A DNA stretch of 64,000 nt from Bacteroidota bacterium (GCA_030706145.1 JAUZPB010000006.1:5135-69134); one strand, 5' to 3'; shown: positions 5,401 through 20,739, counted from the first letter of the stretch. Notes: generated by a model from the letters alone, not told the origin. Numbers and translations: made by a program.

Positions 5401-5607
5401 CCTTTGGCACTTGCCACAGGTGCGGGTGCTCAGGCAAGGTCAACTATTGGTTATACTGTGCTTGGTGGAATGCTTGCTGCAACAATGTTTGGAATATTTG
5501 TAGTACCTGTCTTATTTGTAACTATCACAAGAATTGCATATGGTAAAAAGAAACTTGAAGAGCTAAGGTCTAAAGGTACTGCAGGCAGCGAAGAACATCC
5601 CTCCTGA
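2431..5607 (+). CDS. HAE1 (AcrB/MexB-like) RND efflux permease
   Basis: 1058 aa. FIKRPV start, GIVVDDAIIVVE, AAKNAILIVEFA and RLRPILMTS motifs. Confidence 0.97.
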   Translation: MIANTFIKRPVTAIVTSIVIVLVGVLSIFNLPVSQYPDITPPTVQITGTFSGADALTVEQAVTTPIESQVNGTPGMAYIQGNSTSDGRSTINVVLNVGTNPDIAALDIQNRVGIATPQLPDDVKRLGLITRKRNPSILMLVAIFSPNKTHGIQFLDNYTNIFVRDAILRVPGVGDVFTRADDFSMRIWLEPDRMAQLDLTANDVINALSEQNLQIAAGSIGAPPQYSGQAFEYTVFTNSRLNTVDQFRNIIVKSNPQQGTEVYLKDVARVQLGKFSYSSNSFVDGQRSSFLLIYQTPGSNALEVANGVYSRMEQLKSSFPKDVSYMVPFEAISVVRVSINEVVTTLIEALLLVMLVVFLFLQSWRATLIPMLAIPVSIIGTFAFFIPLNFSINTLTMFGFVLAIGIVVDDAIIVVEAVQHYIDTEHLSPKEATVKAMADISGPVIAIALILAAVFIPVGFIPGIVGRLYQQFAITIAISVLISAFNALSLSPALCSLLLRPAQQGKKSRGLNRFFDKFNQWFQKTNSKYTRGVRKSIELSKYAIIILICLYFGTVLLFETKPTGFIPSEDEGRLYVTYELPEASSTSRSLEVISSMMKILQETPGIGHFAALTGLNVVTFSTKSNSGTIFVQLKPWDERKDKSLQVSALIATLQKKFASIMSANTVVISPPAIPGLGATGGFTFEIEQRQSNDDIKQFEGVVRSFVAAANKRPELSRTFSFFSAHTPGYQLDVNRENCKKLGISIADVYNTIQTYLGSRLINDFTIYGRNFHVVAQADTAYRGAIQDLSHYYVKNTVGEMIPLSNLVTYKVTENAPLISHYNLFRSAELNGNAAEGYSSGQALNALQELAANVLPAGYSFEFSGLSREEINAGSSTLAIFGLSVLVVFLFLAALYESWSVPFSVLLAVPLGAFGAILTLIFIPRLNNNIYAQIGLITLIGLAAKNAILIVEFAKERVERGIELVSATLQAVSLRLRPILMTSLAFILGVSPLALATGAGAQARSTIGYTVLGGMLAATMFGIFVVPVLFVTITRIAYGKKKLEELRSKGTAGSEEHPS

Positions 5608-5646
5608 GATTATAAATTCGCCGAGTTAAACAGGGTAGGGAATGTT

Positions 5647-6507
5647 CTAGTCATTTAAACCATGCAGGATACTTCTCAGGATATTAAGATAATGTTCGTA
5701 TTTACCCTCCCTGATATCGAATAAATAATTACTCTTAATCATATCTTCTATAAACCTTAGTTTTCCCGTTTCATTCGTTTCCTCCTCTAGCAATGCAGTA
5801 AGGAAATTTTTTTTGTGTTCATTTATAATCTTTGCAATATGCCTGCCTAGTAATCTTGAACCAAGAATATCAAAATCGAATTCAACTTCCATCAATTCAG
5901 CATTGTCATTAATCAAAGTATCCATATTTCCTGCGTTAATATAATTTTGAACTATAAACAAGATATCAGAAGCGTCTCTTTCACGTGCCGGGAATGCGTC
6001 TTTCCAGGAAATGAATTTCAGCATGACGAGAGATGGAAGTGATGCTATTCGAACGGAAACTTCTGGAGAATGTGAAATTATCATTATTTCGGAATTTGCC
6101 ATAGCTTCATTAAATCCTAATACTGTCATTTCCTTAGCAGCAATATCAGGCCATTTTATTGTAACATCATTCACAGAAATCTTTCCAAACGGGATAACAT
6201 CAATACTCGGTATATCTTTATAACTGAAACGATGTAATACATCGGAGCGTTTAAATCCCGCATTCAGCAGTTCATTAATTAATTTTCTATAATCATCCCA
6301 GCTGCCTACTCTCACGCTGAAATCGATGTCATTTGTAGCGCGGCCTGCACGTATTCCATATTCTTTTTCGAGTATAATGTCGCGGGCAGTTGCACCTATT
6401 AAAAGAAAATCAATATTTAGCTGAATTGCGGTATTGTTGATTAGTTTTATTACCTCTAAAGTAAATGCATCTATTTTATCAGATAAGTCCAGCAATTTTC
6501 CTCTCAT
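5647..6507 (-). CDS. AbiEii-like nucleotidyltransferase (type IV TA toxin-like, COG4849-type)
   Basis: LIGATARD...RATNDIDF NTase motif and K..SW...RERDASD. Overlaps the upstream AbiEi-like gene by 29 nt. Confidence 0.85.
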   Translation of the reverse strand: MRGKLLDLSDKIDAFTLEVIKLINNTAIQLNIDFLLIGATARDIILEKEYGIRAGRATNDIDFSVRVGSWDDYRKLINELLNAGFKRSDVLHRFSYKDIPSIDVIPFGKISVNDVTIKWPDIAAKEMTVLGFNEAMANSEIMIISHSPEVSVRIASLPSLVMLKFISWKDAFPARERDASDILFIVQNYINAGNMDTLINDNAELMEVEFDFDILGSRLLGRHIAKIINEHKKNFLTALLEEETNETGKLRFIEDMIKSNYLFDIREGKYEHYLNILRSILHGLND

Positions 6508-7474
6508 AAATAATATTGGCAGTTTCTATGTCACGCTGGTCACCCATTGCAATCAAATCGGCATAAATCAAAATCGGATGAACAATTGAAGGAGGATCAT
6601 AATCCGGATTAAAATTCCAGAAACGCTTTATGATTTCAATGTTTCCGGCCGGATCTTTTCTTAATCTGTTCCTGAGCAGAAATTCTCCAATCCTGTTACT
6701 GTCTACATAAATAGTGTGAAATGCTGGTCGAATATAATTTGTCAGCATAGAAGCGGCTGTTTCCCCTCCCCATTGAGCTCCCATGTTTAAAATATCTTTA
6801 ATATCAAAAATATTATTATTATCTGCTTTAAATCTGCCGACAAAATACTTGGGCTTTAGTTTTTCTGGATAAAGAACGGTCCATTTTTTTATCAAAGATC
6901 CCTTGTTAATAAGCTTATACTTCTTATTTGATTGAAAGGCTAAGAACCCCTGTTTTTCCAGATCCTTTAAGGTCTTTTGAACTGTTGTCAGCCCAACACC
7001 GGAATATTCTGCAATCTCCCGTAAAGGATTTTCCTCTAACCTGGGATTACATATGAGAGTAAAAATCAGCTGCATACCCGCGGGTTGAAATGCTCTCCCA
7101 GATTTTATAACACCCTCAGGTTCTTTTAATCGCTTACCCTGGATATTTATGTATAAAGGGGGCAATTTAATAAAAGCATTTCCTGCAGTATCAATAAAAT
7201 TGATATTAAGATTTCTAAGAATTTCCATCAATTCGGGACTTACATACCTGGTTACCAGAAGTAGTAGATCCTGGGGTGGAGCTAGTCGTGATTTTAATAT
7301 ACTCACACTGCTTTTACTGATATGCTGCACAACCTTAACATTAAACATAATATCATAGTCTTCGATCTTTAAGATTAATTGTACTTCTTTTCCGTTCAAA
7401 ATAGGTTGTAGTTCGCCATCAGTATTTCCCTTAAATTTTGCGATAGCGGTATTTAAGACATCAAATTCTAACAT
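6479..7474 (-). CDS. AbiEi-like antitoxin / HTH regulator (COG4861-type)
   Basis: FIDTAGN, HTH (LREIAEYSGVGLTTVQKTLKDLE), WGGETAA and HPILIYADL...GDQR motifs. Confidence 0.85.
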   Translation of the reverse strand: MLEFDVLNTAIAKFKGNTDGELQPILNGKEVQLILKIEDYDIMFNVKVVQHISKSSVSILKSRLAPPQDLLLLVTRYVSPELMEILRNLNINFIDTAGNAFIKLPPLYINIQGKRLKEPEGVIKSGRAFQPAGMQLIFTLICNPRLEENPLREIAEYSGVGLTTVQKTLKDLEKQGFLAFQSNKKYKLINKGSLIKKWTVLYPEKLKPKYFVGRFKADNNNIFDIKDILNMGAQWGGETAASMLTNYIRPAFHTIYVDSNRIGEFLLRNRLRKDPAGNIEIIKRFWNFNPDYDPPSIVHPILIYADLIAMGDQRDIETANIIYERKIAGLI

Positions 7475-7619
7475 TTAATTGCCTTCTTCTGAGATATTGT
7501 TTTGTTTTAGGAAACATAATGAAATAGAGAACAAAAATCAATAAAAACCGCATAAATAGGCGGGTAATGTTCCCTATATTAAAATGTTTCCAAAGTCAGC
7601 AATTCTCGATAGGCTAGCA

Positions 7620-7646
7620 AAAAAGAACCTGCTGTTCTGCGGTTCC
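7620..7646 (-). terminator. Intrinsic terminator after the 7652-8137 gene
   Basis: Minus strand GAACCGCAGAACAGCAGGTTC followed by TTTTTT. Confidence 0.55.
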
Positions 7647-7651
7647 AAAAT

Positions 7652-8137
7652 TTACTCAAGGCAGACTTCGGAAGTTCTGAAGTCCACGTTACGAATATTC
7701 AGCTTATCCCACTGTTCCAGTGGGTACATCTTAATCATAGCCCATCCTTTCCTCCGGCATATAGCATTAAATCTGAACTCGTAAAGATTATTTGAATAAA
7801 GAGGTTTTGATTCATTGTTCAGAATCTCATTGTACCGGCTTCCGTCTGGAAATATAAGTGTTAATCCAAATGGCGTCTTCCAGGCAAGGTTTTCTCCAGT
7901 AAGCTTAATTGTAAGGATTATTTCATATTTCCATCCGTCCATTATCTTCTGATTAACTCTAGGATAAGAATTGGTAACACTAGGTGAAAATCCGTAATTG
8001 TTTTCGACAAATTGACCTTCAACCGAGTTGACAGAGATTTCGTAAGGGCCTTGATTATCAAAGTTTTGGGCATAGGTCGCTTCAAGCATTAACATATAAA
8101 TGCTTATTGCAGATAGAAGCTTTATTATATTTCTCAT
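7652..8137 (-). CDS. Hypothetical secreted protein (161 aa)
   Basis: ATG at 8137 with GGAGG RBS. Sec signal peptide (...ATYA|QN). Confidence 0.75.
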   Translation of the reverse strand: MRNIIKLLSAISIYMLMLEATYAQNFDNQGPYEISVNSVEGQFVENNYGFSPSVTNSYPRVNQKIMDGWKYEIILTIKLTGENLAWKTPFGLTLIFPDGSRYNEILNNESKPLYSNNLYEFRFNAICRRKGWAMIKMYPLEQWDKLNIRNVDFRTSEVCLE

Positions 8138-8201
8138 TATCAGACCTCCTTGGAATAAAAAACTGCAATGCTTTCTGAATGGGACCTTTTTAATACAGTG
8201 C

Positions 8202-8217
8202 TGCAATATTAATGCCA
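8202..8217 (-). promoter_or_regulatory. Sigma54 -24/-12 promoter
   Basis: Minus strand TGGCAT-TAATA-TTGCA, about 65 nt upstream of the ATG at 8137. Confidence 0.65.
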
Positions 8218-8326
8218 AGGAGTTCTAAAGATTAAGTAAAGTTTCCGGATTTTAAGGCGCATACAGGCTGTATCTCCATTAAATTGAATTTAGTAATATC
8301 CTAGGCTGAGGTCGATGTTCCAGTTT

Positions 8327-8773
8327 TTAAAGTTTGGATTTCTCGAGCTCTTTATTGCCGTCAATAAACTTAAGATTGAATTTAAACCTGTCAATTTCCC
8401 ATTTGTCCTGTGACTTTATTAGATGAATATCATAACTGCCTACAAATACTCTTGTATTATTATCTGAGGGGTTCGGCAAATAGTGATAAGCAATTCCATA
8501 ACAGAATACATCAGCCTGATTTCCATTTAGATCTATCAAATAGTTTCCCATTTGATGATGGATTGCCTTAAGCTCTTTTAGTCCTTTTTCCCAACCTTCT
8601 GTTATTTGCTCTGGACTGACTTGCTGTGCTTCTCCTGTCATGTCGAATGTGACGCTAGGGGCAAAGCATTCCTGGACTTTATTCCAACTGCGCTTATCCG
8701 TATTGGTTACCATTAAATTTATGACTTTGATTATTTCCTCTTTTGCAATAAGATCAGCCAATGCTTTTTCCAT
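8327..8773 (-). CDS. SnoaL-like / NTF2 family protein
   Basis: Start MEKALAD. D.R.W...F, HHQMGN..I, G.Y and W.I pattern of SnoaL_4. Confidence 0.85.
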   Translation of the reverse strand: MEKALADLIAKEEIIKVINLMVTNTDKRSWNKVQECFAPSVTFDMTGEAQQVSPEQITEGWEKGLKELKAIHHQMGNYLIDLNGNQADVFCYGIAYHYLPNPSDNNTRVFVGSYDIHLIKSQDKWEIDRFKFNLKFIDGNKELEKSKL

Positions 8774-8976
8774 GTCTGTTCTCCAGTATTTGTTTTCTTT
8801 GGAATCATAATAATATACATAATAGCTTTCGTAAGCTCTAGTCAAGAGTTAATTTATGGCATTATACCGGATAGGGTAGTAGAGCATTTACCAGTAAAAA
8901 CCTTCACTTTTGTCCGCTAGCAGGAATACAGAAACTGTAAATGTGAGTTCTGTATTCCCCTATTGTGCTGCGCATT

Positions 8977-11418
8977 TTATTTTACTGATATGCCGTCTAA
9001 CAGGATTGCGGTGTCGTAGGCGCTGTCGCCTACATCGTGTACGGAAATTGTTAAGCGAACTACTTTCCCTCTGTATGCGGAAACATCAAATTTACTTGTC
9101 ATCCATGGAGTTCCATAAACTCCACCCTGGTCGAATTTAATATCGGATCTGGCTTTAAGATTTCCGGGCGATTCTTTTGTGGCACCGAAATCAATTGCAA
9201 TCTGATCAATAGTTTTTTCCAGCAGAACATTTTCCTGAGCATTAACTTCATTCAAAGTTATTTTGAAACTATCCTGGTATTTTGAGTTAATAAATTCAAG
9301 GAATTCTTCAGAGAGGAAAAGCCATTTTATAGTAAGCTCTGATTCATTTTCTTTTATTCTGAAATCCTGACTGATCGAACCGGATTGTGTAACCGAACCG
9401 AAACCTGTGGAAATAATTCCCATGTTATTGCCTTCCGGAGCTTTTTCAGATCCTATTATTCTTATAACCCTTGCATCTCCGGTATGATCCCAGCCCACGA
9501 TCTCACCAGGTTCGTGTTGTGAATATTCAAATTGCCCATTGATCATTCCTGAAGTAAATCTTACAGGTTCTAAAGTACTGCTGCCATGCATATAAAATTC
9601 GTTAGGATAAGGAGTATTTGTTTTTTTTGATTTAAAGGCATCGAAGATATTCTTTTCACCTACAACAAGGTTTTCAATAAAATCCGGTGCAGTTTCATTT
9701 GCAAATGTTGGAGTTAAATAACCTGTGTAGCCGACATATGCTGATACTCCTTTTTCAAGAAATGCCGTATACTGTTTTGGTATCATATTAGCATATGCCA
9801 TATTCATAGTTGCACTTTCACAGTCCAAAGCAACTACTATAGTCTTGGGAAATTTCTTCAACCACTTCTGAACAAAGGATGGATAAAAACCATAAGTGCT
9901 GCCGGTTTTCAAAGGTATTGTGGTCCACAAAGTACTGGCGATATAAACCCCTGTATTTATAACAACATCCCCCTTATCAAGAAGATCGCGGTAAAGTTGG
10001 CTTTTTTGTGGTGTTACTTCTTCCTTTGATTCCACATACATTCCATAGGCTCCATGGGCCATTAAAATTACCATGCCATAATCATCAAAGTGAAGCGCCT
10101 CAGAGATTGTTGCGTCACCTGCTACAAGGTGTTTTATATAAAGTCCCATTTTATTTTTAGCCAGGCGCTTATCGATCTCTGCAGCAACATCGACTTCCTG
10201 AGCAAAATCATCCTCACAGGCTCCCCAGAGTAAAACGTCCTTATTCAATATGAGATGAGTATCTGCGTCAGCAAAGTTATTTGGGATTATGTGGAATTCA
10301 CCTTTTGTCTGCTCAAATGGTTTAAGTCTGGGGACTCTTGTAGGGTAAATAGTATCCCGACTGCTGAGGGCTGAGGTTCTGCTTAGACCTGAAATGCTAC
10401 TACTGGCCGGTGGACTGCCGCTGCCGATATATAAAGGTTTTCCATTCTGGTCAACTTCCCTTGCGATAATCAGTCCGGACTGGCCCGAAGAATATTTTAC
10501 CAGGATGGTCCTGTCGCCTTCTACTACGACTGATTTTACATTGCTCTGTGTAGTCAGCCATTCAGCGGTTTTGTTAAGAGCAGTTTTTATATCTTTGTTG
10601 TCATAAGCAAAATTATAGAGCTTTTCTGCTGCAGTGGTTTGAAGTTTTTTCTGCTCTTCGTAAACGGCAAGATCCCTCCGTGCAAAAAAGTCTAATGAAT
10701 TAACCGAAGACTTCCCCTCTACAGGACCGGAAGCCTCGTCGGTCTGTGCAACAACTCTGAATCTTTTTGATCCTGTCTGGGATTGTGACATACTAATGAT
10801 ATTATTATAAACATTATCCCCCTGGATATCATCGCCGTGACTTAACACACCGTCATCATAGAGTGTAACTGTTTCAGCTATTATATTATTGCTCTTATCT
10901 ACCTCTACAAGTTTTACCGCCGATACATTCAGGTTTGAAACAGGTGCTATCTCTACCTGAACATGGACATCAGTTGGTTCATTTACCGGAATGCTTGAAG
11001 GAGTAAACTGTGGCTTGCTAAGGAAGTTCAGGTATTTGTTTTTTGTGATCATTATTGTGTCAGAAGAAGATAAACTGGAGTTATCAGTAGCTGTAACAAT
11101 TATGATATTATCTCCCTCCAGCATCGGGATTTCGGCAATTGTCCAGTTATCTGTACCTGTGGCTGTCCCTTTTGTTGAGGAAGATTTCCAGTTAACTTCT
11201 TTAATTGGATTTGCAGAAATTACAATGCCTGCTACAGAGATTTTTTCATTGGTAGTTACATAGCCTTCCTCTGTAGTCGGAGATTGAATAATGACAGAAA
11301 TTGATGGTGAAGACTGCTGAATAGGTTCGGGTTCAGTGGGATTTTTTTTGCAGCTATTAAGAATTACTCCCATGGAAATAGCCGAAGCTAAGACAAAGAG
11401 TAAGATAAAACGATTCAT
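8977..11418 (-). CDS. Large surface lipoprotein with Ig-like and choice-of-anchor-X-like domains
   Basis: Lipobox LNSC. EGDNIIIVTATD Ig motif, LYDDG...DDIQGDNVY motif and a C-terminal beta-sandwich (DVGDSAYDTAILLD). Confidence 0.8.
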   Translation of the reverse strand: MNRFILLFVLASAISMGVILNSCKKNPTEPEPIQQSSPSISVIIQSPTTEEGYVTTNEKISVAGIVISANPIKEVNWKSSSTKGTATGTDNWTIAEIPMLEGDNIIIVTATDNSSLSSSDTIMITKNKYLNFLSKPQFTPSSIPVNEPTDVHVQVEIAPVSNLNVSAVKLVEVDKSNNIIAETVTLYDDGVLSHGDDIQGDNVYNNIISMSQSQTGSKRFRVVAQTDEASGPVEGKSSVNSLDFFARRDLAVYEEQKKLQTTAAEKLYNFAYDNKDIKTALNKTAEWLTTQSNVKSVVVEGDRTILVKYSSGQSGLIIAREVDQNGKPLYIGSGSPPASSSISGLSRTSALSSRDTIYPTRVPRLKPFEQTKGEFHIIPNNFADADTHLILNKDVLLWGACEDDFAQEVDVAAEIDKRLAKNKMGLYIKHLVAGDATISEALHFDDYGMVILMAHGAYGMYVESKEEVTPQKSQLYRDLLDKGDVVINTGVYIASTLWTTIPLKTGSTYGFYPSFVQKWLKKFPKTIVVALDCESATMNMAYANMIPKQYTAFLEKGVSAYVGYTGYLTPTFANETAPDFIENLVVGEKNIFDAFKSKKTNTPYPNEFYMHGSSTLEPVRFTSGMINGQFEYSQHEPGEIVGWDHTGDARVIRIIGSEKAPEGNNMGIISTGFGSVTQSGSISQDFRIKENESELTIKWLFLSEEFLEFINSKYQDSFKITLNEVNAQENVLLEKTIDQIAIDFGATKESPGNLKARSDIKFDQGGVYGTPWMTSKFDVSAYRGKVVRLTISVHDVGDSAYDTAILLDGISVK

Positions 11419-11572
11419 ACTCGCCTCCTGTTTTCAAAGTATTTTAAGAAAACGAAACGGTATTGCTATCGCAGAGGTGTTAATTCGTTTTAGCTATAAG
11501 ATAAAAGTTTCCGGGTAAAAAGCTATTCCATTATGTAATGTTGATAGGGGCAATGGTACAAAATAGCAAACT

Positions 11573-11677
11573 TCCATTACTGGACTCCCATTTGTACTCC
11601 AGATTATCTGATGCTTGAACCGTTTAACCACTATGGATAACAATTTTGTCAGTTTGAAATTGAATAGGGATCATTAA
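11573..11677 (+). repeat. att-like scar A1 (most decayed): hairpin, tRNA 3'-end core TTGTACTCC and conserved arm
   Basis: Aligns with 13068-13177, 15596-15701 and the tRNA-Arg terminator/3' end at 17851-17880. Confidence 0.75.
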
Positions 11678-11735
11678 AGTCCAAGCAATGTTGATGATTA
11701 TGGATTTTTTGCAGATATATTTAAATGAGAAGGCA

Positions 11736-12200
11736 TTAATTCTCCATTGGATTTATTAAATCTTCGGTCATGATTAATTGTAGTGAATCAAGATTTAGTT
11801 TATTATCATTACAATAAATATATCCATCAGGAATTACTGTTATTGTATCACCTTTTTTGATTTTATCATCTATTCTAAAGGCTGTCCTGATTTGTTTTTT
11901 ACCTTCGACTACAATTACTTTTGATTCATCATCAACAAAGTGGCAGGGAATCATTCGACCTTTATATCTGATTGTAAGTGAATCAACATAAAGTTTAACG
12001 CTATTTTCAAGTTTATAGTTTTGATAAAAATCAAAGACATGCCCTTGCCAGTTCTGTAGAGTTATATCAACTTTCCCACATTCAAACTTTACGTTGAGAG
12101 TATCTGAATTAGTATTTAAAGGGATTGAGTAGAAAGTATCACAACCTGAAAGGTAAAAAATACTGAAAATAATTGCAGTGAGAAACAGTTTCAATTTCAA
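11736..12200 (-). CDS. Hypothetical lipoprotein
   Basis: TTG start with GAGG RBS. Lipobox LSGC. Confidence 0.75.
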   Translation of the reverse strand: MKLKLFLTAIIFSIFYLSGCDTFYSIPLNTNSDTLNVKFECGKVDITLQNWQGHVFDFYQNYKLENSVKLYVDSLTIRYKGRMIPCHFVDDESKVIVVEGKKQIRTAFRIDDKIKKGDTITVIPDGYIYCNDNKLNLDSLQLIMTEDLINPMEN

Positions 12201-12306
12201 TTGTTTACCTCAGAAAACAGTAGGCGTATAGGGAATTTAACTGACCTTAAATTAAATGTAATCAGGATTATAGATTTCCCATATTTATTTAAGGGACAAA
12301 GCATAT

Positions 12307-12723
12307 TCATAAGAATTTACTTATTTCACTTTTGAATAAACTATATGTATCTCCAAGATTTTCAACAAGCGGTTCCATTTTCTCTGCATATAGATCCAGA
12401 GCATAAGCATGGCTGAAGAAATGCCTGAATGCCAGATATTGCCCTAAAAGCAATTTGCAATCTTCCGACAATATATTTTCTTTAACAGCTTGATCAATCA
12501 GCTCTTTATGCCAAGATTTTCCGGTGGGAATAGGGATTTGATTGTAAATGAAGACCTGCTTGAATATGTTCTCGACTCCATTATAAAAATTATGAAGAAG
12601 CGCCGCTACACCAGCCAGTTCAAGAACAGATAGGTATGGAAGTTTTACTGATAGAGGCATTTCTTTTAATATCTCATCTATATTCTCAAGTTCGGCCTTT
12701 ATCTTCAGGGATAATTTATCCAT
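12307..12723 (-). CDS. HEPN (HepT-like) ribonuclease toxin
   Basis: RHFFSHAY (R-X4-H-X-Y) motif, LHNFYNGVE and G.SWH. Overlaps the MNT gene. Confidence 0.88.
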   Translation of the reverse strand: MDKLSLKIKAELENIDEILKEMPLSVKLPYLSVLELAGVAALLHNFYNGVENIFKQVFIYNQIPIPTGKSWHKELIDQAVKENILSEDCKLLLGQYLAFRHFFSHAYALDLYAEKMEPLVENLGDTYSLFKSEISKFL

Positions 12724-12985
12724 AGATCAGCAGGCCGTCAGATTTAACCATATCAGTAAGCAAGCTTTTTTTCTTCAGGTCAATCAAGTCGACAGGCTTG
12801 GAGAGACTGAAGATCAGTTCGCTGTAAAACTTAAAAAATATATTATCTGGCAGGCCTTCAACTCCAAGGTCAATGTCATTTGATTCCTTGGATGAATCAA
12901 GGTTTGAGCCGAAAAGATATATCTTCGAAACCTTATACCTTTCAGCTATTTCGAGTAGTATTGTTTTATCTTCATTTGAAATCAT
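12716..12985 (-). CDS. Minimal nucleotidyltransferase (MNT/MntA-like) antitoxin
   Basis: LFGS-X8-DIDL and VDLI motifs, 89 aa. Confidence 0.9.
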   Translation of the reverse strand: MISNEDKTILLEIAERYKVSKIYLFGSNLDSSKESNDIDLGVEGLPDNIFFKFYSELIFSLSKPVDLIDLKKKSLLTDMVKSDGLLIYG

Positions 12986-13067
12986 ACCTCAAAATAGCTC
13001 AAAAAATATATTTTTTCAATATGGAGTGAATTATGAGAATTTGGGCTCAATGACCTAGAATAGCAAT

Positions 13068-13177
13068 AGTCCATTGCTGGACTTTCATTTTTGTGCTCCA
13101 GATTATTTGAAGTTAGAACCTGTATGATGACCACGAATTACAACTTCGCAAGGTTGGGGTTCAATTGTACTGAATAA
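13068..13177 (+). repeat. att-like scar A2: hairpin AGTCCA-TTGC-TGGACT, core TTGTGCTCC and conserved arm
   Basis: agtccattgctggactttcatttttgtgctcc versus the tRNA flank agcccagtagtgggctttcatttgtacccc. Confidence 0.8.
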
Positions 13178-13377
13178 AAGGTACAGACTATACATCCTAA
13201 GGTTAAGTCTTTGCATTAGAAGAGAAATGCATCATATGAGGAAAATTAAGTGTAATCAAATCATGATTTCAGCTCATGCAGACTAAAATATAAAATTTCT
13301 CCATGAAAACTATTTTACTTCATAAAAGGTCAGAAGTGTATTGTCTATCATACATCGGGATAAATGCTCTGTTAATG

Positions 13378-13773
13378 CTACCCTTTTATCTGCACTGCTG
13401 GTTCATGCTTATGCTTTCGGCTGATTCTTAGAGCCAATATGCACGCGTAAACGTTCAAAATCAGTCCAATGAAATAAGGTATCCATACATAAGTGCTCCA
13501 GAAATTCATTACCATAATTGGTTCGAAAAGAAACAATGCATTAATGATAATTGGAGCGTACCAGATGCTTATCCGGAAATTTAAAACCATAAAGAAGCAG
13601 CAGATGGCAGTCGAAATTCCCCAGACTAAGCACGTCTTATTTTCCCCGTAAGCAGTTAACCTGAAAATGCTGTCTGCAATAAACCCAACTGCTGTAGTGC
13701 CTATAAGCGCGAAAAGTGCTAAGGCCAGGGCTGCCAGATGCTGACGCAGTAACTGAGCTTTGCTTTTTTCCAT
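13378..13773 (-). CDS. Hypothetical 4-TM membrane protein
   Basis: ATG with GGAGG RBS. Four hydrophobic segments. Confidence 0.7.
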   Translation of the reverse strand: MEKSKAQLLRQHLAALALALFALIGTTAVGFIADSIFRLTAYGENKTCLVWGISTAICCFFMVLNFRISIWYAPIIINALFLFEPIMVMNFWSTYVWIPYFIGLILNVYACILALRISRKHKHEPAVQIKG

Positions 13774-13806
13774 TTCAACCTCCCAAAAGGAAAAGCCTAT
13801 ATGTTT

Positions 13807-15348
13807 TTATTTCAAAAGGATAAATTTCTTTGCAGCCCTGAAACTGCCAGATTCAAGCTTGTATAAATATATACCGCTTGGTAAGTTGCTTCCATTAAAT
13901 TGGACTGAGTAATTTCCAGCCGGTTTATATTCGTCTACAATTGCAGCAATCTTTTCACCTATTGTATTATAGATCGTGAGCTTTACATCTCCATCTCTTG
14001 CAATCGAATAATTTATAGTAGTGGATGGATTAAAGGGATTTGGATAGTTTTGTGATAAATTATATTCCGATGGAATATTAGAACCGCCCTGTTTGACATC
14101 GGTCAATGTAAAATTGATCAGTATGTTTTTTTGGCCGGGATGTACAAGAATTGGTGTCTGACTCAATCCAGATGGCTGGTTAACTGGAAATATATAATAA
14201 TTGTAAATTTTGCTGCTCACATGAAAAACGAAATTACCATTAGGATCGGTGAACAAATTTGTAGAGGCTGAGTCCTTATTTGATGCACTTAGCTGCATAG
14301 AAAAATTAGGAGGATTTCCATTTAAAGTTACTTTACCGCTTATAGTAGAATTTGATTTGAATATCGTTAGATCATGTGTCAGTGTATTGCCTGAGTTTAC
14401 TGTAGGAAAAGTATAAATTGCCATCATCTGTGTTGTATCAAACTGATCACCGGCGGAAATCTGGATGTTATTTTGCGGTAACTCAGTTGATAGTAAGCCT
14501 ATGCGAAAAGCTCCAGCGGTATCACTCAATCCATAACGGTAATAACTGCCATTGTTCCAGGAAATGAAAGCTGCATCCCTGATTAAAGGAGTGCCATCCT
14601 CGTATCTTGCTGTTCCTTTTATCTCTGCAGAAGCCGCAGTTACGGTAAAGTTTTTGGTTGTATAGTTTGGTGTATTGGGGTTTAAAGTAAATTCATATTC
14701 CATTGGTGAAAGAACAGCCGAGCCAAAGACGAGATTATTGTCGGTAGTAAGACGCCAGGGATTTCCTGTAGTATCGGCATTCATCTGAATTGTAAAGTTC
14801 CCATTTGCATCTGTGAGGGCATCCCAGAACTGAGTAGTCTGTCCATTTCCCTGTGCTTCAAGCGTAAGCATAATATTTTGCTTACTAATTCCCGGTGGTA
14901 CAGAAACAGTACCGGAAATAGTTATTGCAGGTGAAGCTAATTTATTGACAATCCCTGTAACAGTTTTATAATTATTATGGTTTTTGAAAAGCATTATATA
15001 ATGAGCAGGAGCAAGACCAAGTTTTGACTGAAAGAGTACATGCCCGTTTTTTGTTCCATCTATATCCGGCGGTCCATGCTGTCCTTTTGGGTCACCGTCT
15101 ATATGGTTAAAAAATATCCATAAAACATCTGTCGAAGGATTAAGAACGCCATTCTGGTCAGTATCAATCCATATCTCAATGAGTGTGGTATCTCCTGGAG
15201 TAGGAACATCATAGCTCCAACCCAACTGATCGCCGCTTGTAATAGTGAAACTGCTGGTTTGACCGTTAACAAGCAGGTTTGTGATTTGTCCATATGACAT
15301 AGCCGTCAAAATGGACATAAATGTCAGAAAAAGTAATATTTTTTTCAT
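13807..15348 (-). CDS. Secreted beta-sandwich repeat protein with T9SS C-terminal sorting domain
   Basis: Signal peptide, ISG.V...TD.NG.F repeats and LSQNYPNPFNPST...SGIYLYKL...KKFILLK. Confidence 0.85.
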   Translation of the reverse strand: MKKILLFLTFMSILTAMSYGQITNLLVNGQTSSFTITSGDQLGWSYDVPTPGDTTLIEIWIDTDQNGVLNPSTDVLWIFFNHIDGDPKGQHGPPDIDGTKNGHVLFQSKLGLAPAHYIMLFKNHNNYKTVTGIVNKLASPAITISGTVSVPPGISKQNIMLTLEAQGNGQTTQFWDALTDANGNFTIQMNADTTGNPWRLTTDNNLVFGSAVLSPMEYEFTLNPNTPNYTTKNFTVTAASAEIKGTARYEDGTPLIRDAAFISWNNGSYYRYGLSDTAGAFRIGLLSTELPQNNIQISAGDQFDTTQMMAIYTFPTVNSGNTLTHDLTIFKSNSTISGKVTLNGNPPNFSMQLSASNKDSASTNLFTDPNGNFVFHVSSKIYNYYIFPVNQPSGLSQTPILVHPGQKNILINFTLTDVKQGGSNIPSEYNLSQNYPNPFNPSTTINYSIARDGDVKLTIYNTIGEKIAAIVDEYKPAGNYSVQFNGSNLPSGIYLYKLESGSFRAAKKFILLK

Positions 15349-15595
15349 TCTAAGGTCCTCAATTATTTCAATTAATTTAATTAGGGGGGACTTAGAAAAA
15401 AGGTCATAAAATTTGCATTTAATACAGGGAAACCAGAATTAAATAAAAGTGATACTTCTTAAGAGAGTAGATATTAGTTTTGAATTTAAGTCCTGAAAAA
15501 GATCACAACTTATGTGGCCGAAAAGATTATTCTTGATTTTCCGGGTAGCACCTTAATTATTGTCGGGATAGAAAACCACCGCTTATCTTTAAGAC

Positions 15596-15701
15596 AAAGA
15601 AAGCTCAGATAAATGAGTCTTTCTTTTTGTACCCCAGATTATATGACGTTAGAACTTGTTTGTTAAAGATAGATTACAATTTTGCCGGATTGAGGCAATG
15701 A
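15596..15701 (+). repeat. att-like scar A3 (best conserved): hairpin, exact core TTTGTACCCC and conserved arm
   Basis: Core is identical to 17871-17880 (tRNA-Arg 3' end). Arm reads LYPRLYDVRTCLLKIDYNFAGLRQ*. Confidence 0.82.
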
Positions 15702-15707
15702 TTAGTG

Positions 15708-15747
15708 TTGACAAAAGGCACACAATGTTATAAATTGAGATATAACA
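15708..15747 (+). promoter_or_regulatory. Sigma70 promoter of the TA operon with an overlapping operator palindrome
   Basis: TTGACA-17-TAAATT. A perfect inverted repeat TGTTATA-N8-TATAACA (15726-15747) overlaps the -10. Confidence 0.7.
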
Positions 15748-15761
15748 AAATAACATGCCGG

Positions 15762-16034
15762 ATGAAGTATTTCGAATGGAATGAAGCGAAAAATGAGCGG
15801 CTTAAAGATGAAAGAAAGATTTCATTTGAGATTATAATAAGCCAGATTGAGATGGGATACCTTCTCGATGTTTTAAGGCATCCGAATAAGGAGAAATATG
15901 ACGACCAGAAGATATTTGTAGTTGAATATGAAAGTTATGCGTATTTGGTCCCGTTTGTAGAAGATGATGAAAAGGTATTCTTAAAGACAATTATTCCAAG
16001 TAGAAAGACCACAAAGAAGTATTTAGAAGGGTAG
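15762..16034 (+). CDS. BrnT-like toxin
   Basis: MKYFEWNEAKNERLK..R.ISFE and FLKTIIPSRK. Confidence 0.85.
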   Translation: MKYFEWNEAKNERLKDERKISFEIIISQIEMGYLLDVLRHPNKEKYDDQKIFVVEYESYAYLVPFVEDDEKVFLKTIIPSRKTTKKYLEG

Positions 16035-16038
16035 TAAA

Positions 16039-16305
16039 ATGAAAAAGTTGGAGAAAAGTGAGGCAGAGCTCCTGAAGTCTGTTGAAGATGGCGAATGGCA
16101 GTCAGTAGGGGGTGAGAAAAAGAAAGCTGAATACGAACGTTATGCAAAAAATACTGCGGCCAAGAATAAAAGGATAAACATACGTTTATCGGAAAAGGAC
16201 CTTGCCAACCTAAAGGCTAAATCTCTGGAAGAGGGGATTCCGTATCAGACACTTATCGCCAGTATTATTCATAAATATGTACATGGAAAGTTCAGAGAAA
16301 TCTGA
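16039..16305 (+). CDS. CopG/BrnA-like RHH antitoxin
   Basis: RINIRLS..DL..LK.K...EGIPYQTLI. Confidence 0.85.
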   Translation: MKKLEKSEAELLKSVEDGEWQSVGGEKKKAEYERYAKNTAAKNKRINIRLSEKDLANLKAKSLEEGIPYQTLIASIIHKYVHGKFREI

Positions 16306-16327
16306 GCTGTAAACAGGTTTTTAAAAC

Positions 16328-16357
16328 AAATAATCCCGGCGTGGACCGGGATTATTT
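16328..16357. terminator. Bidirectional terminator between convergent genes
   Basis: AAATAATCCCGG-CGTGGA-CCGGGATTATTT. Confidence 0.85.
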
Positions 16358-16368
16358 TGCTTATACTG

Positions 16369-17355
16369 TTATAAATTATTCTTCATAAATTTTTCATATC
16401 CGCTTAACCTGAAAACCTCGCCGGGAGAGAGGTTGTAAATATCTTTCCAGGATTCTGCTCCGTTATTGTTTATGTAGGCCTGGCAAATCCTGAAGCCTAT
16501 GAAATAAGCTATCCTGTCGGGAGCCCCGTCAAAGATAAACCGGTGGGCTCTGGCAAATTTATTTTTCATATTATCATCAGTTGAATCCAATCGGCCCTTT
16601 GTATAATCATATATCTTGTTTTCGTTGTTTATGCACCATTGCCATTCTTTATCTGTAAAACCTATGTTTTTAGCCGGAGATATTTTTTTATCCCAATACA
16701 AGTAATTAACAAAACAGGAGAATCCTTCATTTATAATTCTGCATAATAAGGTCCCGTCATCAGCCTGAATTTTGCCCATTATCTGATGATTGATTTCATG
16801 GGGCAATGCAAATAATAGCTGTTCGTATCCTTCACCCCCGATGCCGAAAAAATCTGCAAACATTCCTATATTTGCAAGGCCTTCCATATTAGCTGCCTTA
16901 TTCCCATATATCAGATACCATTTCCCCTCAGGCACTCTGCCTGTCAGTTGTTTTAATTTGCCGGCAGTTGCAGTGAACACTGAATCGAAGTCAACTTGAA
17001 ATGGGATTAAAAAGCCGGGGGTCGCAGAGCTAATCAAATTTTCCCAGTTTTTGCCGGTCCACTCTTTAAAACCCTGTTCATCAAAAAATCCGTTCCAGAA
17101 ATCCTCACAAGGGAAGTAAACGTCCTTAATAAATTGTGCGATTCTTTCCTCTCTGCCTTTGCCCTTAGAATTGTACACCGATATGACTTCTTGTTTATAG
17201 ATATTAAACACCTGAACTTGACCGTTCAAAATGGACAGATGAATCTGCGGCTTTTTCTGAACAAGGGAATAGAACTTTTCAAAATCATCCTGAGGAAAGC
17301 CTGAAGAGCTGAAAGCCAGGGCAGCAAGAACACTAATAAGAATAAACTTCCACAT
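16369..17355 (-). CDS. Secreted putative Zn metalloprotease (DUF2268/GldB-like)
   Basis: Signal peptide, HEINH (HExxH) plus INEG, and PDRIAYFIGFRI. Confidence 0.75.
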   Translation of the reverse strand: MWKFILISVLAALAFSSSGFPQDDFEKFYSLVQKKPQIHLSILNGQVQVFNIYKQEVISVYNSKGKGREERIAQFIKDVYFPCEDFWNGFFDEQGFKEWTGKNWENLISSATPGFLIPFQVDFDSVFTATAGKLKQLTGRVPEGKWYLIYGNKAANMEGLANIGMFADFFGIGGEGYEQLLFALPHEINHQIMGKIQADDGTLLCRIINEGFSCFVNYLYWDKKISPAKNIGFTDKEWQWCINNENKIYDYTKGRLDSTDDNMKNKFARAHRFIFDGAPDRIAYFIGFRICQAYINNNGAESWKDIYNLSPGEVFRLSGYEKFMKNNL

Positions 17356-17496
17356 TGTTCCTCCAGATATAATTAGGTCGGAAGTATTATGTATCCTTAG
17401 ATTTCTATCAAGTTATTACAGGGGGAAGGGGAAAATAGTGATTTTGTCAAATAAATACAGAATAATCTTTAAAGTATTTTCAGGCTGTGAATCCAT

Positions 17497-17729
17497 AAGT
17501 TTCCCATTTGATGATGGATTGCCTAAAGCTCTTTTAGTCCTGTTTCCCACCCGTCTGTTATTTGCCCGGGACTGACCTGTCGTGCTTCGCCAGTCATGTC
17601 GAATAAGACGCTTGGGGCAAAGCACTCCCGGACTTTGTCCCAATTGCGCTTATCCGTATTAATTACCATGAGGTTTATGACTTTGGTTATTTCGTCCTTT
17701 GCAATAAGATCAGCCAATGCTTTTTCCAT
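17497..17729 (-). pseudogene. Truncated copy of the SnoaL-like gene at 8327-8773
   Basis: Clear nucleotide paralogue. AAG>TAG at 17523-17525, and homology is lost after ...HHQMGN. Confidence 0.85.
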
Positions 17730-17843
17730 GCCTGGTCCCCTGTATTTGTTTTCTTTGGAATAAAATAATATACATAATAGCATTCTGAAGCTCTAGTGCA
17801 GAGTTTATAGACAATATACCGGGTAGGATGGTGTGGTTTAAAA

Positions 17844-17870
17844 TGAGAAAAGCCCAGTAGTGGGCTTTCA
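17844..17870 (-). terminator. tRNA terminator
   Basis: Minus strand AAAGCCCA-CTAC-TGGGCTTT followed by TCTCATTTT. Confidence 0.8.
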
Positions 17871-17874
17871 TTTG

Positions 17875-17948
17875 TACCCCCGAGAGGATTCGAACCTCCG
17901 ACCTGCGGTTTAGGAAACCGTCGCTCTATCCTGCTGAGCTACGGGGGC
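17875..17948 (-). tRNA. tRNA-Arg (anticodon CCT)
   Basis: GCCCCCGTAGCTCAGCAGGATAGAGCGACGGTTTCCTAAACCGCAGGTCGGAGGTTCGAATCCTCTCGGGGGTA folds as a cloverleaf. CCA is not encoded. Confidence 0.95.
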
Positions 17949-18047
17949 ATCTACAGAATTGTTTTATTCTTAGACCAATAAGATAACCAAAATTCGGCAA
18001 AAATGAAATAAAAAGATATGCCTTTGATAATTGAATCACCTTATTTC

Positions 18048-19217
18048 TTACTTCAATATTACAAGCTTCTTTGACTCCCTGAAGCTTCCGGCTTCAATTC
18101 TGTATATGTATACTCCTGCAGGCAGTGTGTTGGCCCTTAACCTGTATGAGTAGCTCCCTGGTTCCTTAAATTCATTAACAAGTGTCATAACCTCTTTACC
18201 AAGCATGTCAAAAAGCTTTAGCCTTACCTGCGCGCTTTGTTCAACTGAATACTCAATTGTTGTCTCTGGATTAAATGGGTTTGGGTAGTTCTGCTTTAAT
18301 CTGTAGCTTGCTGGCACCTTAAAGGTCTCAAGCCCTGTGATTGAAAGGGGAAATACATCTGTAATTGTAAAGTCTACCCAAAATAGTCCCGAAGTATTTG
18401 GAATTGCATTTCTTATGGCATCACCAAGAGCTTTTGGTGGATTTGTATACTTGCTCCACCACGGCTTATCATCCGGGTAGCCAAACTGGTATTCAACCCG
18501 GTTTGATGAGAACTTATTACCCCATTTTTTGAAGTAATAGAGCATTTCACTTAGATCTGTAAACTGCTGACTGTCATCAACAAATATTATGTCACCCCTG
18601 TAGCTTGGCGGCATGTGACTTTCGGTAAAGTGCTTCAGAAAGAGGGAATACTTAGGATTTATTGCCTTAACTGTCTTTTCCCATGATTCTGCTGCCGAAT
18701 CACTTACTTGAATTCCATAGTTGTTGTTTGGGTATATGCCATTGTTAAAATACCACTCGGCGTCCATTCCAAAGCCTGTCACGCATTTGTGGCCTTTATA
18801 ACGGTTAAGTACCAGCTTTATCAAAGAGTTCATATCTGCTTTTCCAGACTCAACCTGCAGCCATACTTTTATTCCTGCACTGTCAAACTTCGAAAGATAT
18901 TCTTCAGCTTTGTCAGTCCCGGCAAAACTTACATTTGGATAGTCATTTCCATCCGATGGAAATACCATCTGTGTTGATCCGTCATCCTGAAAAAAACTGA
19001 CAATCCAGACTGCAGCAGGAGAGTAATTCTCAAAGTTTTTGCTCATTGCTTTTCCTACAGCCTGCCAGTAGTCAGTCTTGTATTTATAAATATGGGAGCC
19101 TCTGAAACCAGCAACTTTTAAAGTTGAATCTGCTTGTGCAAATACTGAATTGCTGCTATATATAAGTCCTGCAAGAATTATGGTCAAAACAATTGGCTTA
19201 AAGAACTGAACTCTCAT
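18048..19217 (-). CDS. Secreted protein (possible TIM-barrel glycosidase-like domain) with T9SS C-terminal sorting domain
   Basis: Signal peptide, GFGMDAEWY and LKQNYPNPFNP...AGVYIYRI...KKLVILK. Confidence 0.8.
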   Translation of the reverse strand: MRVQFFKPIVLTIILAGLIYSSNSVFAQADSTLKVAGFRGSHIYKYKTDYWQAVGKAMSKNFENYSPAAVWIVSFFQDDGSTQMVFPSDGNDYPNVSFAGTDKAEEYLSKFDSAGIKVWLQVESGKADMNSLIKLVLNRYKGHKCVTGFGMDAEWYFNNGIYPNNNYGIQVSDSAAESWEKTVKAINPKYSLFLKHFTESHMPPSYRGDIIFVDDSQQFTDLSEMLYYFKKWGNKFSSNRVEYQFGYPDDKPWWSKYTNPPKALGDAIRNAIPNTSGLFWVDFTITDVFPLSITGLETFKVPASYRLKQNYPNPFNPETTIEYSVEQSAQVRLKLFDMLGKEVMTLVNEFKEPGSYSYRLRANTLPAGVYIYRIEAGSFRESKKLVILK

Positions 19218-19425
19218 AAGGTCTTCCTCTTTTTCTGATGGGATTATACTGAAAAATAGTTCTGGAAAATTCTATATGCCTATATAAAGAATAATTTGGT
19301 CCTAATATTCAGAAAAATTGGCTAAAATATTTTGTTGACTTTTATAAGAATTCGACATAATCATCTCTAATTTAAATTGCTTTTACTCCCCCTTATTTAT
19401 AATTTTGTATAATGAATTTCACTAA

Positions 19426-20739
<1,314 letters not shown>

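Follow-up and report, generated by a model that had tools for sequence, protein, structure and literature searches.

Islands that collect in tandem beside one chromosomal gene have been described in Dehalococcoides, in streptococci, and in Prochlorococcus, and these are the closest described counterparts of the locus considered here. This locus is an array of small gene units behind the tRNA-Arg(CCT) gene of a Bacteroidota bacterium, within a stretch of 64,000 nucleotides (nt) referred to as the window (GCA_030706145.1 JAUZPB010000006.1:5135-69134), in which three direct repeats, the scars A1, A2, and A3, separate the units. In Dehalococcoides, tandem islands at ssrA are accompanied by 20-bp direct repeats, beside each of which lies a conserved 15-bp motif that does not align with ssrA (PMC3146451). 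In that account, 15 islands lack an integration module and are proposed by its authors to be cis-mobilizable elements (CIMEs); 16 carry a serine integrase module, DsiB (PMC3146451). The array in the window resembles the ssrA islands in its tandem units behind a small RNA gene, in its direct repeats of the 3' end, in the motif beside each repeat, and in units that lack an integration module. It differs in that the enzyme of the Dehalococcoides islands is known and their cargo includes dehalogenases, whereas no integrase is present in any unit of the five species compared here, the target is a tRNA together with its terminator, the units are smaller, and the cargo consists of toxin-antitoxin and defense genes.

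In streptococci, CIMEs have kept attL and attR, have lost the genes for integration and transfer, and lie in tandem at the 3' end of their target gene, where new arrivals enter the site that holds the end of the gene (PMC5704250). As the term is defined there, a CIME lies beside a related functional integrative and conjugative element (ICE) or integrative and mobilizable element (IME) that is able to move it in cis (PMC5704250). Unlike the streptococcal elements as portrayed there, the present array has no ICE or IME partner that could be seen beside it. In Prochlorococcus, islands lie next to tRNA genes, with neighboring elements separated by partial tRNAs, older partial tRNAs inside the islands, and new arrivals that push the older ones inward (bioRxiv 10.1101/2020.12.28.424599). 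The tycheposons of that account have tyrosine recombinases, excision shown by polymerase chain reaction (PCR), and fragmented integrases as remnants (bioRxiv 10.1101/2020.12.28.424599). Unlike tycheposons so described, the array in the window shows no integrase fragments, and its scars share only ~10 nt with the tRNA proper, plus the terminator. What the locus has in common with tandem tRNA islands in general is an intact target gene, direct repeats of the 3' end of that gene, differing cargo with a conserved 5' flank, and units without integration or transfer genes. The array is a known kind of island; it differs from the described cases in the lack of a recombinase in any unit of five species, the very small size of the units, and a short block of sequence that is better kept than the core beside it.

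Like an integron, the locus is an array of small, mostly co-oriented, recombinase-free units between repeats that resemble recombination sites. Unlike an integron, it has no intI beside it (no PF00589 match on the 80-kb contig) and no folded attC-type site, the sole kept hairpin being of the terminator type; its cassettes have promoter-like sites and terminators of their own, and the dock is the end of a tRNA gene. No integron-like cassette platform at a tRNA was among the papers listed in a literature search on the topic. Recombinase-free units between short sites, with the enzyme encoded elsewhere, are also known from the composite islands of the staphylococcal cassette chromosome (SCC), where Ccr serine recombinases act at the end of a protein gene (rlmH/orfX), and from the pdif modules of Acinetobacter plasmids, which have 28-bp XerC/XerD sites in alternating orientation and often contain toxin-antitoxin pairs. 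SCC islands and pdif modules are both looser analogies. By eye, the block found here has no 11-6-11 dyad, and all copies are direct. Finally, tRNA-linked repeats, for example those downstream of E. coli tyrT, are short head-to-tail repeats of a tRNA 3' end with no genes between them, whereas 1.5-2.5 kb of genes lie between the copies in the window.

The window lies on an 80-kb contig (C302) of a 5.34-Mb assembly in 345 contigs (genome G000). Its relatives include two congeners (G001 and G002) and a sister genus, g6, with six genomes, among them G007, G010, G012, and G013. The sole tRNA gene of the window is tRNA-Arg(CCT), which is 79-100% identical in seven relatives, and the three scars lie behind it as direct repeats in the same orientation as the tRNA:

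11571-11696, minus strand: scar A1, with hairpin 11571-11588, core 11592-11600 (TTGTACTCC), block with a 1-nt gap, and arm
13068-13177, minus strand: scar A2, with hairpin 13068-13083, core 13091-13099 (TTGTGCTCC), block 13100-13126, and arm
15596-15706, minus strand: scar A3, with hairpin ~15595-15629, core 15627-15635 (TTGTACCCC, plus strand), block 15636-15661, and arm reaching up to the BrnT promoter
17836-17883, minus strand: tRNA junction, with GGGGGTAC (last bases of the tRNA), AAATG, a 9-bp terminator hairpin at 17848-17869, and a T tail after it (terminator scan and repeat comparison)
17874-17948, minus strand: tRNA-Arg(CCT), intact (ARAGORN; Rfam tRNA, 64.6 bits)

In the direction of the tRNA, each scar consists of an arm of ~70-100 nt that is common to all three, a conserved block of ~25 nt, a degenerate copy of the tRNA 3' end (TTGTACCCC) that forms the core, and a terminator hairpin. 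At the tRNA itself, TTGTACCCC occupies 17872-17880 and corresponds, as reverse complement, to the tRNA 3' end with 2-4 flanking bases; this 3' end is proposed to be the attB core. In blastn searches against the whole assembly, A1 and A2 are 79% identical over 62 nt (E 1.5e-7), A2 and A3 76% over 68 nt (E 1.9e-6), and A1 and A3 73.5% over 68 nt (E 1e-3). The distance from core to core is 1499 nt between A1 and A2, 2536 nt between A2 and A3, and 2245 nt between A3 and the core at the tRNA. With the tRNA locus the scars have in common ~10 nt of tRNA end and the terminator, at 65-71% identity over ~50 nt. An earlier note, made from this DNA alone, had placed three repeats here and matched their cores to the acceptor end of the tRNA, and the coordinates and significant blastn pairs bear it out. 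It had also read the scars as increasingly decayed with distance from the tRNA, with the newest insertion next to the tRNA. This gradient is not found: the changes in the core relative to the tRNA, going outward, number 0 (A3), 2 (A2), and 1 (A1), and core plus terminator match the tRNA junction at 34/52 positions in A3, 33/51 in A2, and 35/49 in A1, the farthest scar being the most alike. Regarding the lesions claimed for the A1 arm, the 1-nt deletion is indeed seen as a gap, but a stop has no meaning in arms that are non-coding.

The repeat family is confined to few genomes and to one kind of site. In the rest of G000, a profile of the three scars finds one weak partial copy (C333:1950-1995; E 0.14; 82% identical to A3 over 50 nt by blastn), and the tRNA junction comes next (E 0.44 genome-wide, 0.014 among loci). 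A 23-nt block pattern with at most one mismatch occurs in seven of a sample of 401 genomes of the order, namely G000, four of the six g6 genomes (G007, G010, G012, and G013), and two single matches in another family; the control with the reversed pattern likewise gave two matches in the 401 genomes. Outside G000 the family was found in four species only, all of the sister genus. Their array tRNA is the same tRNA-Arg(CCT), and linkage to it on one contig is assembled in three of the four. All nine matches at E<=0.01 in these four genomes fall on array contigs, the tRNA junction itself accounting for two; no match better than E 0.04 was obtained in G001, G002, G006, G009, or G011. The 12 copies that could be aligned, from five species, are all on array contigs and have the orientation of the tRNA wherever the tRNA is on the same contig. 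Searches for the block pattern further afield gave 14 stretches in public genome contigs, of which three were true and all were g6 arrays already known, and 28 in metagenome contigs, none of them true, with no integrase-bearing parent element in either set; in viral contigs none of 19 stretches was true, and a second pattern gave no stretches. The genome profile and the pattern check of 401 genomes support the view, also taken in the earlier note, that the scars are att-like sites tied to tRNA-Arg(CCT) and not a generic, genome-wide repetitive extragenic palindromic (REP) element. The partial copy at C333:1950-1995 is a fourth block and core (TTTCAGATAATCTGGGGTATAAATG) that lacks a terminator and is followed immediately by the start codon of a response-regulator gene; it represents a relic or else a secondary site.

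Conservation within the scar is uneven. Across the 12 copies, mean pairwise identity is 53.6% in the outer arm, 77.2% in the 25-nt block (AACAGGTTCTAACGTCATATAATCT, tRNA strand), 72.3% in the core, 63.7% in the hairpin, and 40.5% downstream. Because the block is better conserved than its flanks, there is a small chance that it is still a functional site, and it is likely the recombinase-binding side of the scar. The pairing of the hairpin is kept by compensatory changes (85.9% of cells paired, double changes in four of nine pairs), a paired share reached by 2 of 500 shuffles. For arm and block, RNAalifold gave no consensus fold from the 12 copies (0 pairs), and Rfam found no structured RNA family besides tRNA. 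Two candidate features of the block were rejected. A hint from MAFFT that it mimics the T arm of the tRNA did not hold, as its score is reached in 351 of 5000 shuffles and by other tRNAs as well, and an inverted block copy behind the BrnA stop (16313-16335) is matched by many chance pairs and is not kept after BrnA in four of five other copies.

The units between the scars, and the variable part distal to them, contain the following genes:

11697-13067, minus strand: unit 1, with a lipoprotein-like open reading frame (ORF) at 11736-12200, a HepT-like toxin at 12307-12723, and an MNT antitoxin at 12716-12985 (Pfam)
13178-15595, minus strand: unit 2, with a small membrane protein at 13378-13773 and a protein sorted by the type IX secretion system (T9SS) at 13807-15348 (Pfam Por_Secre_tail, 1.6e-10)
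15707-17835, mixed strands: unit 3, with the four genes that follow
15705-16034, plus strand: BrnT-like (Pfam match below the cut-off)
16039-16305, plus strand: BrnA/CopG-like (BrnA Pfam match below the cut-off)
16369-17355, minus strand: GldB/DUF2268-like lipoprotein (Pfam)
17416-17783, minus strand: SnoaL-like pseudogene with in-frame stops and a broken frame
7652-11418, minus strand: distal variable part, with a 188-aa ORF, termed X, at 7652-8218, an intact SnoaL-like gene at 8327-8845, and an 813-aa lipoprotein-like ORF at 8977-11418

This is the content read earlier from the sequence: a HepT/MNT pair, a T9SS substrate, a weakly matching BrnT/BrnA pair, a GldB/DUF2268-like lipoprotein, and a broken SnoaL-like frame. 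The MNT gene of unit 1 corresponds to the PADLOC system PDC-S09. Homology of G001 to unit 1 begins at 11697, the edge of scar A1, and its contig C1 carries an 86% identical unit 1 block without the arm. Scar A3 together with BrnTA is 86% identical to G013:C58. Taken over the arrays, unit size is ~1.5-7 kb and the cargo consists of toxin-antitoxin, defense, and secreted-protein genes, and a scan gives the unit cassettes their own promoter-like sites and terminators. The distal SnoaL-like gene is intact and shares 87% identity with its duplicate, the pseudogene beside the tRNA. The distal variable part is not syntenic in the relatives.

Comparison with the relatives shows a fixed tRNA with an exchangeable 3' side. 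The gene on the 5' side of the tRNA (19353-20000) is syntenic beside the tRNA in five relatives, while the cargo between the scars differs, so that the cassette-level variation expected earlier is present, both between species and, as strain variants, in four metagenome runs. Between species the cargo includes AbiE in four g6 genomes, JetABCD (Wadjet) in G010, and a zeta-like kinase, OmpA, and T9SS proteins elsewhere, in addition to MNT/HEPN and BrnTA. The array of G010 has the order tRNA, AbiEi/AbiEii and a 338-aa ORF, scar, MNT and BrnA, scar, JetA-D, scar, several genes including an intact SnoaL-like gene, scar, ORF X. In G007 the order is tRNA-terminator, AbiEi/AbiEii, scar-terminator, SnoaL, and in G000 it is tRNA-terminator-SnoaL pseudogene, with the switch in homology at 17830/17831; judged by their alignment, the two form a pair of insertion and empty site with core and terminator repeated on either side. 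At a non-tRNA site in G007 (contig C14), where a terminator and MNT lie beside a GroES-like gene, homology to the window stops at 13090, the edge of the A2 core. In G012 and G013, displaced tRNA pieces follow the terminator at the junctions, with a partial anticodon arm and a recognizable T arm and acceptor strand. The empty-site pair, the breakpoint at the core edge, and the displaced tRNA pieces read as classic footprints of integration into a tRNA gene. In G002, GTTCGGGGGTAC occurs after a HEPN-MNT pair, 9.7 kb behind the tRNA.

The displaced tRNA-Arg pieces are at ~1300-1420 of locus L015 (G012:C286) and at ~9100-9260 of locus L013 (G013:C58), and in them the variable loop and the 3' side of the anticodon stem have given way to a palindrome (TCCCGAAAG/CTTTCGGGA). 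Shorter tRNA remnants (GGTTTCCT...) are found behind several scar terminators, and one is in the SnoaL upstream region at ~8880-8900. The public record of G013:C58 (L026) names an Acidobacteriota metagenome-assembled genome (MAG), but its sequence matches Ignavibacteriales arrays and is placed in the family of the window; the title is probably a labeling or binning issue.

At the level of close strains, too, the locus is in flux. Contigs of four soil-metagenome runs (three studies) were aligned to positions 7000-20000 of the window, and uncovered parts (e.g., 11774-12641 in X1 and X2; 17416-17849 in X1, X2, and X7) were counted only if a contig bridges them; rare forms do not appear in such contigs, some of which may be chimeric. 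A 28-kb contig from X1 starts with 7000-8854, 1476 new letters, a BrnTA-like copy (15696-16313, ~84%), 108 letters, and 8920-11745; it continues, across a 936-nt deletion (11745 to 12682), with 12682-17399, 146 letters, and a second piece of ORF X (7659-7936). The deletion at 11745/12682 has a 3-nt microhomology and removes the lipoprotein ORF and HepT. In a contig from X2, 7936 is joined to 17872, the edge of the tRNA core, and in X5, 16321 is joined to 8336. No scar-to-scar joint is present in the contigs of the four runs, in which rare forms are dropped, and the strain contigs neither prove nor exclude excision at the scars. The joint 7936-17872 breaks ORF X right after AGATAATGGAC (7937-7950, minus strand), which is faintly like the end of the block plus the core (ATAATCTGGGGTAC), a likeness that may reflect a secondary site or be due to chance.

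A recombinase is not encoded in the array. PF00589, PF00239, and PF07508 have no match on the 80-kb contig, in line with the earlier remark that the region lacks an integrase; the five PF00589 matches of G000 are all off this contig, and among 32 matches in G001, G007, G010, G012, and G013 none is on an array contig. Candidate enzymes encoded elsewhere in G000 are two Xer-like recombinases (C2 and C304), an integrase on C105, and a serine integrase on C277. One lead comes from the tRNA junction. Its exact 18-mer GGGGGTACAAATGAAAGC (17864-17881) recurs once in the assembly, at C277:25303-25320 (blastn E 0.037), where it spans the ribosome-binding site and start codon of a serine recombinase gene (C277:23682-25310, 542 aa), the only large one in G000. 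Contig C277 is 37 kb long and phage-like, with tail, endolysin, and replication genes. The attP site of a phage is often located at the start of its integrase gene, and the 18-mer could be the attP of a phage for tRNA-Arg or a coincidence. The arm beside it on C277 is unlike the block. The nearest relatives of the integrase are Clostridium and Terrisporobacter phage integrases (~43% identity), and 13 other genomes of the family contain no close homologue (a single 35% partial match in G010). The predicted junction between phage and tRNA occurs in 0 of 120 other genomes of the order, and 24 loci with relatives of the integrase in IMG/VR show no tRNA in the flanks fetched, the closest having a different gene start. 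Of 78 contigs, C277 correlates least with the genome in its tetranucleotides, and it may therefore be mis-binned. As a partner of the array, its serine integrase is a possible lead that may be a coincidence.

The region from ~7.6 kb to the tRNA at 17.9 kb is best explained as a genomic-island hot spot at the 3' end of tRNA-Arg(CCT), and it was probably formed by the tandem accretion of small, integrase-less, CIME-like islets at the tRNA attB, followed by decay and by reshuffling through other recombination. Small DNA units would enter by site-specific recombination between the tRNA 3' end with its terminator (attB) and a matching site on the unit. Each entry would restore the tRNA and its terminator and push the previous junction outward, leaving a direct scar with a unit-derived arm that includes the conserved ~25-nt block, a degenerate tRNA-end core, and a terminator. 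Since the units contain toxin-antitoxin, defense, and secreted-protein genes and no recombinase, they resemble CIMEs or decayed islets. Deletions, module insertions (notably of BrnTA), and duplications that do not use the scars would then have reshuffled the array. The repeats, their restriction to the tRNA locus, the variation of cargo between species and strains, and the recombinase-free array contigs are the observations that carry this explanation, and we infer from them that the junctions were made by a site-specific recombinase. Several points weigh against it. The overlap with the tRNA proper is only ~10 nt, the profile match to the tRNA junction is weak when taken alone (E 0.44), its weight coming from position and orientation, and the likeness of the tRNA to the block upstream of the core is not significant (matched by 351 of 5000 shuffles). 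Six of the 12 arms (A1, A2, A3, and three in G010 and G013) reach the BrnT promoter region, so part of what is called the arm may be flanking sequence of a BrnTA-type module that has spread inside the arrays. With ~72% identity the cores are degenerate, and many scars may therefore be dead. Only one of eight listed strain joints touches a core and seven are away from cores, at 8854, 8920, 11745/12682, 15696, and 16313-16321, and at 17399; two more joints, 17958/19363 and 18876/18996, are outside the array. Finally, no partner recombinase was found, and G012, which is 97% complete, has only two PF00589 matches genome-wide; the G012 and G013 arrays are broken up into short contigs, and a recombinase gene could sit in an assembly gap.

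The earlier note went further and proposed an integron-like capture platform. In its active form, block, core, and terminator would be an attC-like cassette site and the tRNA-Arg 3' end with its terminator an attI-like dock, and a recombinase supplied in trans, which could be a housekeeping Xer-like enzyme, the integrase of a visiting element, or the C277 phage serine integrase, would shuttle 1-7-kb defense and toxin-antitoxin cassettes today. The tRNA-anchored, integrase-less, scar-separated array of that proposal is real, but its integron-like activity is unsupported, and we consider an active platform unlikely. Selection on a binding site is suggested by the block, the best-kept part of 12 diverged scars (77.2% vs. 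40-54% in the flanks); the units are small and all recombinase-free in five species, and the modules MNT, BrnTA, SnoaL, and X occur in different orders in G000, G010, G013, and G007. Unit 3 has its own terminator plus SnoaL, as expected if a multi-unit circle had been cut out of another array between tRNA core and scar and re-inserted, and the 18-mer of the tRNA junction recurs without a mismatch where the one large serine recombinase gene of G000 begins, on a phage contig. Yet no joint links two scars, or a scar and the tRNA core across a whole unit, in the contigs of the four runs, although rare forms are hidden there; seven of eight joints are off-core, and the cores are degenerate. The five array genomes have no recombinase in common, the C277 enzyme lacks a close homologue elsewhere in the family and has its nearest relatives (43%) in Clostridium and Terrisporobacter phages on a contig of atypical composition, the phage arm is unlike the block, and the predicted phage-tRNA junction was found in 0 of 120 genomes. 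There is no attC-like fold, and the cassettes have promoter-like sites and terminators of their own.

At the other extreme, site-specific recombination may have played no part: the tRNA 3' flank (core and terminator, with an old tRNA fragment) would have been duplicated locally, in the manner of tRNA-linked repeats, and genes would have been exchanged by homologous or illegitimate recombination after DNA uptake at a plain hot spot. The strain joints speak for such exchange, as seven of the eight listed are off-core and one has a 3-nt microhomology, and so do the BrnTA and MNT modules found outside arrays without the block (G007:C38 and G007:C14) and the lack of any recombinase found. In G010, moreover, the tRNA junction and the first scar form a direct repeat of ~48 nt at 85%, enough for homologous exchange between strains. 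Duplication of the flank, however, leaves the block unexplained: it does not occur next to the tRNA, and at every scar it stands in place of the T arm. Within a genome the copies share only 65-80% identity and are poor substrates for homologous recombination, all copies are direct and confined to one tRNA, and the pair of G007 and G000 looks like a clean insertion against an empty site; we consider this origin as unlikely as the active platform. It is less probable still that the scar serves as a functional RNA or as a regulatory module, for instance a small RNA or a promoter plus terminator, kept to control cassette expression, whose likeness to the tRNA is incidental. A3 does have a sigma-70-like match on the tRNA strand (TTAACA-17-TATAAT, 11/12), ATAAT is nearly invariant in the block, and a kept hairpin with a T tail follows every block, but the -35-like hexamer is not kept in the other copies and the scan calls only one of the three window scars. 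A transcript from the predicted start would meet the terminator after ~15-40 nt, arm and block have no consensus structure (0 pairs) and no Rfam match, and the copies occur behind one tRNA only.

Accretion of integrase-less islets followed by decay would make this locus, in a poorly studied phylum, a documented case of a defense and toxin-antitoxin island built behind a tRNA from very small recombinase-free units, with a precise site to look at, the 25-nt block beside the tRNA-end core. If the sites are active, they would form a simple system, found in nature, in which cassettes are docked at a tRNA gene by an enzyme supplied in trans; gene capture of this kind would help to explain the exchange of defense genes among soil Ignavibacteriales. 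If they are dead, the array is a clean example of island accretion and subsequent decay.

No conserved flank marks the far end of the island, as 2431-7640 of the window has no synteny with the arrays of the relatives. On the other side, a T9SS-sorted protein gene (18048-19217) lies between the tRNA and the conserved upstream gene in G000 only, its homologue in G011 being 10 kb off, so the 5' side of the tRNA is also slightly variable. Within the region, the SnoaL-like gene is duplicated together with its upstream region (8535-8853 and 17491-17808; 87% over 271 nt). Together they enclose the entire array as a 9-kb direct repeat, with the intact copy distal and the broken one beside the tRNA, and the arrangement would fit re-insertion of a piece that had been cut from another array between tRNA core and scar. 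The BrnTA module (15707-16306) is a mobile piece itself; it occurs outside arrays in G007:C38, in another family in G020:C35 (71%), and up to three times in G013. In the metagenome strains it is found at new places, with joints 16313-8920 in X1, X2, and X7 and 16321-8336 in X5.

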